The translations under genes were made by a program, and so were the position numbers. Source: Candidatus Heimdallarchaeota archaeon B3_Heim (GTDB taxonomy: Archaea > Asgardarchaeota > Heimdallarchaeia > Hodarchaeales > Hodarchaeaceae). From it: a DNA stretch of 32,000 nt. The notes beneath the pieces were generated by a model that did no database searches, was not told the DNA's origin, and saw nothing but the letters and a program-made list of their open reading frames with translations. The stretch spans positions 7,653 to 39,652 of the forward strand of contig NJBF01000009.1 of NCBI GenBank assembly GCA_003144275.1, written 5' to 3'. Below, piece after piece: positions 10,252 to 28,568 of the stretch; position 1 is the first letter of the stretch; every line of letters begins with the position of its first letter.

Positions 10252-11151
10252 CTATGTTTGAATTTTTAACGAGAAATCTAAAGATCTTACTGAATGAGTC
10301 AAAGCACCAATTGAAATTATATCTATTCCTTTTATCAAGTATTTCTCGATATTTTCTGGTTTTATTCCTCCACTGATCTCAATAAGTGGTTTCCTCTCAG
10401 TAATCCGATCATTCATAAAGGAAATTGCGTGTTGAATTTCTTCAGGAGTAAAATTATCAAGCATAATAACATCAGGATGTAAATTTAGCACACTTTTAAA
10501 TTCTTCAAGTGTTTCTACTTCGATATCAATTTTTTTACTGAATGATGATAGTTGTTGATATTTTGAAAGAATATCTGCAATTGATTCTCCCTCAAAAATC
10601 GCTAAGTGATTTTCTTTTATTAAAATTTCATCAGAGAGACTCCAACGATGTGTGTCACCACCACCAACTTTAACTGCATATTTTTCGAAATATCTGAAGC
10701 CAGGAGTTGTTTTACGGGTTGATGCAATTCTTAAGGACGCATCAGAGGTTGTTATCATGTTTACTAGTCGTTTAGTTTGTGTAGTAATACCCGATAGACG
10801 CATAATAATATTTAATATTGTTCGTTCAACCATGAGTATTATTTTACTACTTCCTCCAATAGTAAGAATGATATCCTTCTGAACTACCTGATCTCCGTCG
10901 TGTTTAATTATTTTTACTTCTAAACCAACTGCTTCTAGCAGAATACGCGCGAATTCAAGGCCACAGACATATCCTTGTTCCTTAGCAGTAAGATTGGCTT
11001 GGACGATTCTATCTGGTGTTATATCAGAAGTAATATCCCCAAATTCAAGATCTTCTTGGAGAAATTGCAGTAATTTTTTTTCTAGTAATTTAGGAGGAAG
11101 ATACGCCAAGTTTTTCACCTTTATGAAGTGGATTAGTGCTTTAAATTTCAA
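10252..11151 (-). CDS. nadC: Nicotinate-nucleotide diphosphorylase (quinolinate phosphoribosyltransferase)
   Basis: EDL..GDIT, TRKTTPG, GGG..HR, IKENH, EVE, MLDNF, SGGI and ISIGALTHS. The true start may be the TTG at 11109 (after GGTGA). Confidence 0.96.
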   Translation of the reverse strand: MKFKALIHFIKVKNLAYLPPKLLEKKLLQFLQEDLEFGDITSDITPDRIVQANLTAKEQGYVCGLEFARILLEAVGLEVKIIKHDGDQVVQKDIILTIGGSSKIILMVERTILNIIMRLSGITTQTKRLVNMITTSDASLRIASTRKTTPGFRYFEKYAVKVGGGDTHRWSLSDEILIKENHLAIFEGESIADILSKYQQLSSFSKKIDIEVETLEEFKSVLNLHPDVIMLDNFTPEEIQHAISFMNDRITERKPLIEISGGIKPENIEKYLIKGIDIISIGALTHSVRSLDFSLKIQT

Positions 11152-11229: not shown

Positions 11230-11588
11230 CATAATCATTTTTGTCCGACAAGGCAATATTTCTCGTATTCGCAGCCCTCTCTCTCACAATCTTAAAAGGC
11301 CTCCCTCCCTTACTTCTTCAACCCCGAGGTGATGACAAAAAAATATACATAATTCTTAGGTCATATTCCCTTGTAACTACGTTAGACGAGTTACCCGTCA
11401 AAGGCAAGAGAAGAATGGCCCAATCTGGTGGAAATTCTGAAGTGTTTGGGAAATCGCAAGAAGATCTGATTCAAGTAATCCCAATGGATAGCATACATTC
11501 TCTTGTTGCTAACCTGCCGGATAGCGGATGTGTGACTCATCCAGTCCAGAACTATTCTCTAAATAGTTGTCTGACAAATTTAGTCATG
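11230..11588 (+). mobile_element. 359-bp non-autonomous miniature relative (MITE-like, copy A) of the TnpB element at 27158-28568
   Basis: Left end 11230-11251 is 18/22 identical to 27158-27179. Right end 11567-11588 is 20/22 identical to 28547-28568. Internal 11370-11405 is 30/36 identical to tnpB 27904-27939, and 11516-11546 is 29/31 identical to 28488-28518. Confidence 0.85.
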
Positions 11589-11689
11589 AGCTTGTTATCA
11601 TTGAAGGAGAAAGGATGATAAACTTTTTATTTAGAGAATTTTCACGAAAATACCAAAGAAATACCAATTTCTAAGCTCGAGGATTTAAA

Positions 11690-12376
11690 TTGAAAGTTTC
11701 CTGTTTAATATCAGGAGGGAAAGACTCAGTTTTTGCATTATGGTGTGCCCTTCACCAATTTGAGGTTATTTCGCTTATAAATATTCAAGCGAGAACCTCT
11801 GATAGCTTTCTTTTTCACTTCCCGAACACCCAGTACGTATCCTTAATTGCAGAAATGTTGAGCTTACCACTCCTTACAGTAAAAACTACTTCCTCTAATG
11901 TGAATGAAGAGACATCAATGTTAAAACAAATATTCATTGATTCTGAAGCAGAAGCCATAATTACTGGAGGTATTAGATCAGAATTTCAAAGATACAAGTT
12001 CAATTATGCGGCTTTACAAGCAAATGTGAAGTGTTTTAATCCACTTTGGCGTCTTTCACCTAGGACTCTTATGGATGAACTACTAACAAACCATTTCCAT
12101 ATCATTCTTGTTTCTGTTTCCGCTATGGGTTTCGGGAAACACCTCTTAGGCAAGAAGCTAACGCCTGAGAAATTAAATGTGCTTAGGGCCTCAAATGAGG
12201 TTTCAGAATTAGCGACGACAGGAGAAGGAGGAGAATATGAATCATTTGTATTGGATGCCCCATTCTTTCCCTCCCGTATTATTGTGGATAAAGCCAAAGT
12301 ACATTGGAACGAATTCAGGGAGGAAGGGTACTTCGAGATAATTAAAGCATATTTGGAACTTAAAAGACCTAGATGA
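11690..12376 (+). CDS. dph6: Diphthine--ammonia ligase (PP-loop ATPase)
   Basis: SGGKDS, FHFPN, GGIRSEFQ, PLW and GEGGEYESFVLDAPFF. TTG start. Confidence 0.92.
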   Translation: MKVSCLISGGKDSVFALWCALHQFEVISLINIQARTSDSFLFHFPNTQYVSLIAEMLSLPLLTVKTTSSNVNEETSMLKQIFIDSEAEAIITGGIRSEFQRYKFNYAALQANVKCFNPLWRLSPRTLMDELLTNHFHIILVSVSAMGFGKHLLGKKLTPEKLNVLRASNEVSELATTGEGGEYESFVLDAPFFPSRIIVDKAKVHWNEFREEGYFEIIKAYLELKRPR

Positions 12377-21217: not shown

Positions 21218-21455
21218 TTTATAGGCTCCTATCTGCGAAATAATAGATTAAATCTGAATGGATATTGGGTATGAGATGAAGAACTAGATATAATTAGGCC
21301 ATAAATAACCATTTTTTTAAAGAATTCGATATCCAATATCAATGGAATTAGCGGTGGAATTTCGTAGAATTGCATTATATTGGTTAACTAAATTAATGAT
21401 TCATAAATTTCTGATTGTTTGGATCAAGAATTATAAGCGTTTCTGGAATCACTCC

Positions 21456-21675
21456 CTCGTAACTGCGTTAGACGAGTTACCAGTCAAAAGCGAAGGGGGT
21501 AAAGCCAGTGGTTTTTGAAAATCGAGAAATCAAGCAAGAATGCCACTCCTATAGTAACAAGAAGTCCCTCGAAAACTAATTCTTCAGTCGAATTGGTTTT
21601 TTCCGGAATAGCAGACCCGTGACTCATCCTGTCCAGAACGAGGTTTTGTTGCTTTGTATGACAAATATAGTCATG
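21456..21675 (+). mobile_element. Second miniature TnpB-element relative (copy B); right end intact, left end not recognisable
   Basis: 21456-21491 is 32/36 identical to copy A and 28/36 to tnpB. It carries GTGACTCATCCTGTCCAGAAC at 21619, and its right end 21654-21675 is 19/22 identical to 28547-28568. Confidence 0.75.
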
Positions 21676-22001
21676 AATAGATGAATACTTCTTTCTATAC
21701 AATAATAGAAACGCAGAGAAGAGATTTTTGATTTGAAAAAGCAAGTCATTGATTTTTCTTATTAGTAAAGATAATCCTGTAATAGTCGATTCTAGTTGAA
21801 TACAAAAATAAAAAAGGTTTTGATTTTATTTTCTATTTACTTCATTACTATGTCTAAAAGAAAATAGGTTGAGAATCACTTTTAACATTCCGATAGAGAT
21901 TATTGATCACTCTCCTACAAATGTGTATTATAATACAGTTACAAGCTTTATAGTTCATGATTCTCATAATATACAGATATTGAGTAAGATAGGTAATAAT
22001 T

Positions 22002-27157: not shown

Positions 27158-28568
27158 CATGATCAAATTTGTCGGACAAGTAAAAAAATTGAGGTTGAAA
27201 AAAGGCAAGTCATTTTCGTTTTCGGGGACCTCTCTCTGGTACAAGGTTAAATACAAGAAAAACAGTCCAATAAATGGGAATGCGAGCCAAAAAACAGACA
27301 CACCCACAACTGACAATAAGAATCCAAATGAAATCAAAGCCCATTTTTGTGGATTTGTGTACACGAGCCAAAAACTTGTATAATAGAGCTACCTACCAGG
27401 TGCGACAAGAATTTTTTGCCACAGGAAACTGGTTGCAGTATACAACTCTTTATCATCAACTAAAGCATGAACCAGTCTATTTGGCACTAAAAGAAATCTC
27501 TGATAGCTATCTCCCTCAACAAGTCCTCCGCCAGGTGGAACAAACCTGGAGAAGTTATTTTAATGCAATGAAAGTCTGGAAAAAAGAACCCAGTAAGTTT
27601 CTTGGTCAGCCTCGTCTTCCAGGCTATAAAGCAAAAAATGGCCTTCATGTGCTTAGCTTTCCACGACCCCGTGTCCGAATCCGAGGAACAGAGGTATTAT
27701 TTGCACGGAATTTAATGGCTCGTGGATTTCCCTCGTTTCCAGTGGGAAATCTCCCTGTTTCTAGAAAAACCTGTACGGGTGCTAGATTAGTGCCGTTTTA
27801 TGATCGATTTGTGGTTGAAATTCTGTATGAAACCGAAGTAAAGTCGTTATCCTCATTTAAAGAATCACCTAGAGCTATTGGTATAGATCTTGGGATTACT
27901 AACCTCGTAGCTACGTCAGACGGCTTACTCGTCAAAGGCGGGGTGGTAAAAACCGTCAATCAATGGTACAACAAGCAATTAGCCTATTTTAAATCACTCG
28001 CAAAAAAACACAATCAACAACATAATACACGTCGAATGCAACGGATGCATCGTGTCCGCGCAAATAAGATCAGTGATTATTTCCATCAAACCTCTCGAAC
28101 AATTATTAATCACTGTTTACAGAAAAATATTCACACCCTTGTTGTTGGCTATAATTCCTTTTGGAAACAGCATTGTAATTTGGGAAAACGAACAAACCAA
28201 TCATTCGTCCAAATACCCTTTTTTAAATTACTTCATATGCTTGAATATAAAGCTAAATTAGTGGGTATATCCGTTATTCGTGTCTCAGAAGCATATACTT
28301 CTCAACAGTGTAGTGATTGTGGTATAATTGATAAATGTAACCGAAGATCGCGAGGATTGTACCATTGTCGTTCCTGTGGCCTTCGTCTTAACGCCGATCA
28401 CAATGCCGCCATTAATATTCTTCAGCGTTCATCTCTTGATAAACAAGTAGTCCCTTCGGTCAGTTCAAGCTCTATTTGTTCTGATCAGCCGGATAGGGGA
28501 TGTGTGACTCATCCTGTCGTGACTCAAAAAGTTTAGTATTCTTTTTTTGTCCGACAAATCTAGTCATG
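27158..28568 (+). mobile_element. 1411-bp solo-TnpB insertion element (IS200/IS605 superfamily, IS1341-like organisation; no tnpA)
   Basis: A single tnpB ORF bounded by 23-bp imperfect inverted ends: 27157-27179 versus the reverse complement of 28547-28569, 20/23 identical. Boundaries are supported by where homology to copies A and B stops. Confidence 0.85.
27274..28536 (+). CDS. tnpB: TnpB RNA-guided endonuclease with rearranged RuvC-II site
   Basis: N-terminal OrfB HTH (KNLYN...), RuvC-I AIGIDLG, VVGYN..WKQ in place of the canonical E, alternative E in RVSEAYTS, CSDC/CRSC zinc finger and RuvC-III NADHNAAINI. Confidence 0.96.
   Translation: MGMRAKKQTHPQLTIRIQMKSKPIFVDLCTRAKNLYNRATYQVRQEFFATGNWLQYTTLYHQLKHEPVYLALKEISDSYLPQQVLRQVEQTWRSYFNAMKVWKKEPSKFLGQPRLPGYKAKNGLHVLSFPRPRVRIRGTEVLFARNLMARGFPSFPVGNLPVSRKTCTGARLVPFYDRFVVEILYETEVKSLSSFKESPRAIGIDLGITNLVATSDGLLVKGGVVKTVNQWYNKQLAYFKSLAKKHNQQHNTRRMQRMHRVRANKISDYFHQTSRTIINHCLQKNIHTLVVGYNSFWKQHCNLGKRTNQSFVQIPFFKLLHMLEYKAKLVGISVIRVSEAYTSQQCSDCGIIDKCNRRSRGLYHCRSCGLRLNADHNAAINILQRSSLDKQVVPSVSSSSICSDQPDRGCVTHPVVTQKV

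Follow-up and report, generated by a model that had tools for sequence, protein, structure and literature searches.

A 359-bp block at positions 11230-11588 of the window, the whole stretch of 32,000 nucleotides analysed here from Candidatus Heimdallarchaeota archaeon B3_Heim, belongs to a dispersed family of DNA elements with sharp ends, does not encode a protein, and is inserted at a CATG-type site in the spacer between nadC and a dph6-like gene. With a probability of roughly 85%, the block derives by internal deletion from a 1.4-kb tnpB-only insertion sequence, is non-autonomous, and has kept an omegaRNA-type scaffold. Sequence comparison indicates that the members of this family, referred to here as minis, retain exactly the two stretches of tnpB that are constrained as nucleic acid, namely a short piece of the RuvC-I coding region (island 1) and the 3' scaffold.

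Boundaries and Genomic Context

The window lies on contig C8 of an assembly of 3.95 Mb with 36% G+C and 94% completeness. The block, designated copy A, sits in a divergent promoter spacer, flanked by nadC on the minus strand (10252-11151) and a gene of the diphthamide synthase family, dph6-like, on the plus strand (11690-12376). When the tnpB element of the window was compared with the window by BLASTN, four plus-strand, colinear matches fell inside 11230-11588. These correspond to a left-end interior segment (11250-11284 versus 27202-27237, 78% identity), a RuvC-I fragment (11369-11405 versus 27903-27939, 84% identity, E 2e-5), the tnpB tail (11503-11546 versus 28476-28518, 86% identity, E 4e-8), and the right end (11567-11588 versus 28547-28568, 91% identity). 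The matches confirm a preliminary description of the block, and recounting by eye reproduced the end identities given there, 18/22 on the left and 20/22 on the right. Aligned with full-length elements, the block lacks most of the nuclease gene, as described earlier.

The proposed boundaries are exact. In 24 genomic copies aligned with their flanks, homology halts at 11230 and 11588, and the flanks are mutually unrelated. The consensus of these copies starts with CATGATCAwwTTTGTCnGACAA and ends with TTGTCTGACAAATTTAGTCATG. Both ends are therefore 22-bp inverted repeats, CATGATCAwwTTTGTCnGACAA and, reverse-complemented, CATGACTAAATTTGTCAGACAA. Because one terminal tetranucleotide, either CATA at 11230-11233 or CATG at 11585-11588, is derived from the target, the inserted DNA amounts to 355 bp.

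Copies, Subfamilies, and Full-Length Relatives

A BLASTN search of the genome with the block returned 25 matches, among them at least 18 full-length minis of 354-367 bp as well as truncated copies. The copy count that the preliminary description had called for thus reveals a dispersed, multi-copy family with sharp ends and about 25 protein-less members. At least four subfamilies can be distinguished. Identity to copy A is 84-88% for A-type and C23-type copies, 79% for the D type, and 60-70% for the seven most divergent B-group copies. The D-type copies occupy five different loci and are 97.5-100% identical, whereas the closest sequence in the sister genome (G001 and G014, which are one genome and also the source of locus L001) reaches only 79% identity to them. 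At the sequence level, this shows that the D subfamily moved after the split from the sister species.

The window holds a second mini at 21436-21675 on the plus strand. It is a 5'-truncated B-subfamily copy that lacks a left end but retains island 1 and the right end, and its identity to positions 124-362 of B-type copies is 82-84%. A spurious 86-codon ORF on the minus strand (21484-21744) overlies it. Elsewhere in the genome, on contig C88, one mini is nested within a tnpB remnant.

Five intact 1.4-kb tnpB-only elements share the ends of the minis and are about 70% identical among themselves; the presence of intact tnpB genes of the same family in the same genome agrees with a MITE-like origin. 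One of the five is the element at 27158-28568 of the window (plus strand), whose tnpB spans 27274-28536. Its product matches OrfB_IS605 (PF01385, 3e-22) and Cas12f1-like_TNB (PF07282, 3e-23) in Pfam as well as solved TnpB and Cas12f chains, and its GIDLG, EAYTSQ, and NADHNAAINI motifs and zinc ribbon are all intact. The block had been described as a miniature of this particular element. Family membership is borne out, and direct parentage is not. The 3' 117 nt of copy A are 90% identical to the tnpB element on contig C61 and to two contig-end copies, compared with 86% over 44 nt only for the element of the window. In the latter, a 15-nt insertion (GTGACTCAAAAAGTTTAGTATTC...) replaces a covarying right-end hairpin (28500-28546) that is present in all minis and in the four other full-length copies. 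Because the C61 element is closer and the right end of the window's element has diverged and lacks this hairpin, the latter is a relative of copy A rather than its parent. Any omegaRNA made from the element of the window may be changed or impaired.

Relics of 33 bp consisting of ends only were also observed, three in this genome (C8:64499-64531, outside the window; C35:1462-1494; C50:11147-11179) and one on a metagenome contig (L123:1114-1146). In each, the left and right ends are fused on the common palindrome TTGTCnGACAA. By analogy, these relics fit the repeat-mediated core deletion described for the PATEs of Haloquadratum. A second TnpB family (about 430 aa, eight copies) is accompanied just downstream by a repeat of about 150 bp that is 87-96% identical between sites (L108:1039-1217, C62:15029-15179, C24:63-242, C64:750-897, and C61:21533-21684), and this repeat is probably the right end plus omegaRNA of that family.

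Anatomy of the Mini

All features of copy A described here lie on the plus strand. The left terminal inverted repeat, CATAATCATTTTTGTCCGACAA (11230-11251), is conserved in all full-length copies and includes the subterminal palindrome TTGTCCGACAA (11241-11251). A palindrome of this kind, TTGTCnGACAA, lies inside each 22-bp end and has arms of 5 bp around a single nucleotide. A CT-rich tract followed by a TATA-like box, CTTAAAAGG (11291-11299), occupies 11276-11299 and aligns with the regions upstream of tnpB; the counterparts in the five full-length elements read CTCTCTCT..CTTATAAGAG, GTTAAATA, and GTTATAAA. From this alignment, the box of the mini would be the tnpB promoter, kept from the upstream region. 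Farther downstream, GAGGTGATG (11326-11334) reads in the alignments as what is left of the ribosome-binding site and start codon of tnpB, and the first deletion breakpoint follows it directly.

Island 1 (11373-11405) is a 33-nt piece of the RuvC-I region of tnpB that contains the hairpin GTAACT.CGT...ACGAGTTAC and is near-invariant in 35 mini copies from two species. A stretch of about 65 nt separates it from the 3' segment of the tnpB element, of which the minis keep about 116-130 nt. In copy A, the omegaRNA-like scaffold corresponds to the last ~116 nt of a tnpB element (11473-11588) and is composed of a scaffold hairpin domain (11478-11524), an invariant core, CCGGATAGCGGATGTGTGACTCATCC (11517-11542), and a right-end hairpin (11550-11568). 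The right terminal inverted repeat (11567-11588) completes the element; its palindrome occupies 11567-11577, and it finishes in CATG (11585-11588). By analogy with the omegaRNAs of IS200/IS605 TnpBs (PMC10055086, PMC10691335), the guide of the predicted omegaRNA would be read from the flank 3' of the right end, at 11589-11608.

Coding Capacity

Copy A contains an open frame of 125 codons (11241-11618), and both tnpB fragments lie in it. The mini might accordingly encode a small protein in which TnpB fragments are fused (..SLVTTLDELPVKG....PDSGCVTHPVQN..), and the frame is indeed open in several other A-type and C23-type copies. However, it is interrupted by three to four stops in the young D subfamily and by one to three stops in the seven divergent B-group copies. 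The retained Shine-Dalgarno and ATG are out of frame with the ORF and lead to a stop after six codons, Pfam gave no match, and conservation acts at the nucleotide level, synonymous positions included. A protein-coding mini-gene is rejected on account of the stop codons in other subfamilies, and its probability is very small. The lack of a conserved ORF is instead what a MITE-like derivative would show, and the ORF at 11241-11618 should not be annotated as a gene.

Evidence for an RNA Scaffold

The preliminary description had proposed that the region expected to encode the omegaRNA is still present in copy A. This expectation is upheld by a 116-nt block that is homologous to tnpB 3' ends in the sense orientation, runs to the right-end boundary, and shows covariation. 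RNAalifold, applied to an alignment of 35 distinct copies, predicted that island 1 forms a hairpin, that a long-range helix (GTGACT/AGTCAT) links the invariant core to the extreme end of the element, and that this helix encloses a covarying hairpin whose stems take forms such as ACTATT/AATAGT, ACTCTT/AAGAGT, and CGCGG/CTGCG, among others. When pairs were counted for a specified structure, 97% of cells were paired, and this share dropped to 27-50% when the partner was slid by one to three columns. Covariation is confined to a single helix, the right-end hairpin, where five pairs have changes on both sides (59 cells) and none of 500 shuffles reached the covariation score. The other three helices are invariant and therefore neither support nor contradict the fold. 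Many sequences contain G-U pairs that would be A-C on the opposite strand, which assigns the fold to the sense strand of tnpB.

The upstream hairpin of the scaffold (domain 1) was not aligned in columns by MAFFT. Folds of single sequences yielded the same two-domain architecture in most copies, with stem sequences that differ by subfamily: AGCAACAA/TTGTTGCT in the A type, GAAAAC.AATTCA/TGAATT.GGTTTT in the B type, and GAAAGCTA.../...TAGTTTTT in the C type. The folding energy of copy A as a single sequence was no better than that of shuffles (z -1.3 sense, -0.8 antisense), and Rfam gave no match for the mini at E values up to 1.

Intact tnpB genes provide a separate view of the same regions. 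A codon alignment of the five tnpB paralogues gave the fraction of amino-acid-invariant codons that are also synonymously identical. Most of the gene has values of about 0-0.5, and no part before the 3' tail exceeds 0.6 apart from island 1 (IDLGITNLVATSDGLLVKGG), where the fraction reaches 0.83-0.90. Over the codons of PDRGCVTHPV, which make up the scaffold core, it is 1.0, and this frozen 3' stretch is where the omegaRNA is expected. The hairpin of island 1 is more perfect in the minis than in the genes (GAGTTAC versus GGCTTAC). Pairing of island 1 with the scaffold core (GAGTTAC/GTGACTC) or with the right-end palindrome (GTTAGAC/GTCTGAC) is possible on paper; both were rejected, as the few variants break these pairings rather than compensate for them.

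These data also bear on whether the block is an inert relic, that is, a tnpB element decayed through deletions whose copies spread or persist without omegaRNA function, and in which the conserved parts are cis-acting sites that a transposase reads as DNA and not as RNA. The ends and subterminal palindromes are the most conserved parts of the minis, relics that retain nothing but the ends exist at three loci in this genome and on one metagenome contig, and terminal-only forms in Haloquadratum may be mobilised (PMC3119063). The invariance of most scaffold helices and the unremarkable stability of single sequences point the same way. A relic of this kind is nevertheless improbable. The covarying hairpins stay paired by means of G-U, which would leave A-C mismatches on the other strand, and the synonymous positions of the 3' core are frozen in intact tnpB genes, precisely where the omegaRNA is expected. 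In addition, the segment running from island 1 to the right end measures 214-217 nt in the 35 distinct copies from two species, a length fixed within 3 nt across subfamilies that are only 68% identical.

Insertion Sites, Target, and Distribution

The presence or absence of minis at orthologous sites distinguishes this genome from its relatives, including at the nadC-dph6 locus itself. Comparison with orthologous nadC-dph6 spacers had been suggested as a check on the block, and an empty site was found: the spacer of Hodarchaeota MAG YT2_065 (L002) lacks the element. There the sequence reads ...ttgattgaagCATagaatcgtaatcattgagg, whereas the window reads caattgaag, then the block from CATAATCA to TAGTCATG, then agcttgttatcattgaagg. 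Judged by the relatives of its dph6-like protein, the genome falls among Asgard archaea of the Heimdall/Hodarchaeota type. The closest of these relatives is a 'Candidatus Heimdallarchaeota' MAG (L001, in the sister genome), with 94% protein identity. Its nadC-dph6 flanks are 94.5% identical to those of the window, and the same site, at the same CATG, holds a B-type copy in the opposite orientation that is 68.6% identical to copy A.

The sister genome contains dozens of mini copies, and 19 of these loci were compared with the present genome. Eight insertions of the sister genome are empty here, six of them with exactly one CATG and two deviating (CACG and CTT). At the L116/C49 locus, the two genomes differ by an indel and the empty side lacks CATG. 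In the reverse comparison, the sister lacks one insertion that is present here and has CAT and then c at the site; the L002 site at nadC-dph6 reads CATA. One exact CATG is found in 7 of the 11 empty sites that could be read, which indicates that the element lands at CATG. Beyond the CATG, the target context shows A/T richness only.

Filled sites have CATG at both junctions and empty sites have it once. This pattern could arise from a 4-bp duplication, from IS605-like insertion 3' of CATG, or from conservative recombination at CATG. In copy A, the left tetranucleotide (11230-11233, plus strand) is CATA, like the L002 empty site (gaagCATAgaatc), and the right one is CATG, which favours a left tetranucleotide derived from the target. 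The left-side CATA is therefore probably target site rather than element DNA.

Several further observations concern the insertion sites. The 5 nt beside the nadC-dph6 site differ among the three genomes: agctt in the window (11589-11593), ttttt at L001:2403-2407, and gaatc at about 2383-2387 of L002. Similar scrambling of 5-8 nt is seen at the filled and empty pairs C67:12462 versus G014:C59, L118 versus C23, and L116 versus C49, and these tracts may be footprints of excision and re-insertion. One mini of the sister genome (L114:647-1006) lies inside a long repeat-rich ORF, which has 539 codons in the present genome (G000), where the CATG is intact at C11:81040-81060; insertions are thus not confined to spacers.

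Within the genus, the mini family was detected in some but not all genomes, and the 12 genomes examined from other genera of the class gave no match. The location of the block in a divergent promoter spacer could suggest an ordinary conserved regulatory region of nadC and dph6 that resembles a tnpB element by chance. However, the block is absent from the L002 spacer, is replaced by another subfamily in L001, and has about 25 copies in unrelated contexts, so that the likelihood of this explanation is close to nil. Taken together, the multiple copies, sharp ends, 22-bp inverted ends, and presence or absence between relatives sustain the reading of the block as a MITE-like derivative.

The Search for a Mobilising Enzyme

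Mobilisation in trans, as originally proposed, finds support in its first part only. Mobility itself is evident from the insertion polymorphism and the burst of D-type copies. A transposase that would act in trans was not found in this genome. Neither a Y1 (HUH) TnpA (PF01797) nor a Cas1 (PF01867) was matched in this 94%-complete assembly. Of 18 genomes from the genus, 2 encode a Y1 TnpA, which lies next to a TnpB of another clade (27% identity). An IS607-type serine-recombinase TnpA was likewise not found in the genome, where the single PF00239 match is a resolvase of 183 aa with a C-terminal HTH_7 that adjoins a reverse transcriptase on contig C2. This locus (L082; G000:C2, 185-7439 of a 7.7-kb contig) comprises a 1593-codon ORF, an RVT_1 reverse transcriptase, and the small HTH_7 resolvase. 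It may be a retroelement or a diversity-generating cassette and seems unrelated to the minis.

A longer element with the same ends was also sought. In five genomes, the sole lengths enclosed by pairs of the family's inverted ends are 33 bp, about 360 bp, and about 1.4 kb. When metagenomes were scanned for the left-end pattern, the result was four short contigs with nothing beyond minis, one isolated end, and a relic of 33 bp. A 2.6-kb interval between two ends (C8:61897-64531) was rejected as a mobiliser, as it contains an M48 peptidase rather than a transposase. As candidate mobilisers, Y1 TnpA, Cas1, an IS607-type TnpA, and a longer same-ended element were all dismissed; none was found in the genome, in four relatives, or in the metagenome scan.

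How the Minis May Work

On the model of an omegaRNA-type derivative, transcription of the mini would start at the promoter kept from tnpB and pass through the scaffold into the flank, giving an omegaRNA whose guide would be the ~16-20 nt after 11588. TnpB from intact members of the family would load this omegaRNA in trans. Upon excision of the mini, TnpB would cut the vacated site, and recombination would then restore the copy. A trans-supplied enzyme that recognises the inverted ends would move the mini to new CATG sites. Because the right end also terminates in CATG, a plain CATG TAM would cause the occupied site to be cut, and any TAM must extend beyond CATG.

A more radical and rather unlikely proposal dispenses with a dedicated transposase: the tnpB-only elements with inverted ends, and the minis, would spread to new CATG sites through the action of TnpB or a host enzyme on these ends and the GTCnGAC palindromes, and island 1 would be a cis-acting part or a second RNA module. 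If true, such transposase-free spread would speak to the long-standing question of how IS1341-type elements proliferate without TnpA. Asgard archaea are the archaeal lineage nearest to eukaryotes, and the eukaryotic relatives of TnpB, the Fanzors, also occur in transposons with inverted ends.

Relation to Known Elements

Elements of this kind are already known, and the mini family is a further member of the PATE-like and standalone-omegaRNA elements. The PATEs of Haloquadratum arise by deletion from IS605/IS1341-type elements, ends-only forms of 52 bp result from deletion between two near-terminal palindromes, and strain-specific insertions occur without an intact TnpA (PMC3119063). PATE-like elements encode omegaRNAs for TnpB made elsewhere (PMC10055086). 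The minis resemble these deleted IS605/IS1341-type elements of haloarchaea and Geobacillus (PMC3119063, PMC10055086) in several ways. Both are protein-less and keep both ends plus part of the 3' coding region of tnpB, both have near-terminal palindromes of the same sequence at the two ends and a target of 4-5 nt, and both form ends-only versions by deletion between the palindromes, of 52 bp in PATEs and 33 bp here. Both also show strain-specific insertions despite the absence of an intact TnpA, and PATEs often carry an omegaRNA that is used in trans. In contrast, the absence of terminal inverted repeats is part of the definition of PATEs, whereas the present family has 22-bp inverted ends, and its palindrome arms (5 bp around a 1-nt centre) are too short for a hairpin of the TnpA type. 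The family further differs from PATEs in that both ends finish in the palindromic target CATG, in its Asgard host, and in the extra module represented by island 1.

Standalone omegaRNAs of OMEGA systems are described as mobilised and functional in trans (Altae-Tran 2021, as summarised in PMC10691335). As far as that summary goes, they resemble the minis in lacking both effector and transposase in genomes that contain effector-bearing loci. According to the same summary, they were shown to work in trans with compatible effectors. Relative to the standalone omegaRNAs summarised there, the minis also keep the promoter and start region of tnpB and an internal gene fragment.

TnpB elements whose ends are symmetrical have been described from branches associated with DDE transposases, and Asgard archaea are reported to have TnpBs linked to aCas1 (PMC10691335). 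In the DDE/IS630-associated and solo TnpBs of that report, inverted repeats surround tnpB and its 3' end lies at most 250 bp from the end of the transposon, as in the present family. Here, however, every copy lacks a DDE transposase, inside it or nearby, TA is not duplicated, and the target is CATG. Conservative recombination of the IS607 type at a short common core would leave one CATG in the empty site and one at each junction, and a palindromic core would allow either orientation, but an IS607-type TnpA is missing here. The casposon-like aCas1-TnpB elements of Asgard archaea rely on a Cas1-family integrase, and this genome has no PF01867 match. With regard to IS200/IS605, the TnpB with its OrfB_IS605 domain and zinc ribbon is present, whereas the genome has no Y1 TnpA and the asymmetric ends without inverted repeats that are typical of these elements are replaced by 22-bp inverted repeats. 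The family therefore works like a PATE or a standalone omegaRNA but departs from IS200/IS605 in two traits, the inverted repeats and the missing Y1 TnpA.

Implications

The minis confirm the existence of predicted guide-RNA-only offshoots of TnpB transposons in Asgard archaea of the Hodarchaeales type. They map two nucleotide-level functional islands within tnpB, and the ~25 natural variants of the scaffold could be used to define the minimal omegaRNA of this TnpB clade. The family also constitutes a well-defined natural data set in which the ends are exact, the target is CATG, the subfamilies are dated, and two sister species offer filled sites paired with empty ones. Its recent mobility without a recognisable transposase brings to an Asgard archaeon a problem already raised for the IS1341 and PATE elements of haloarchaea.
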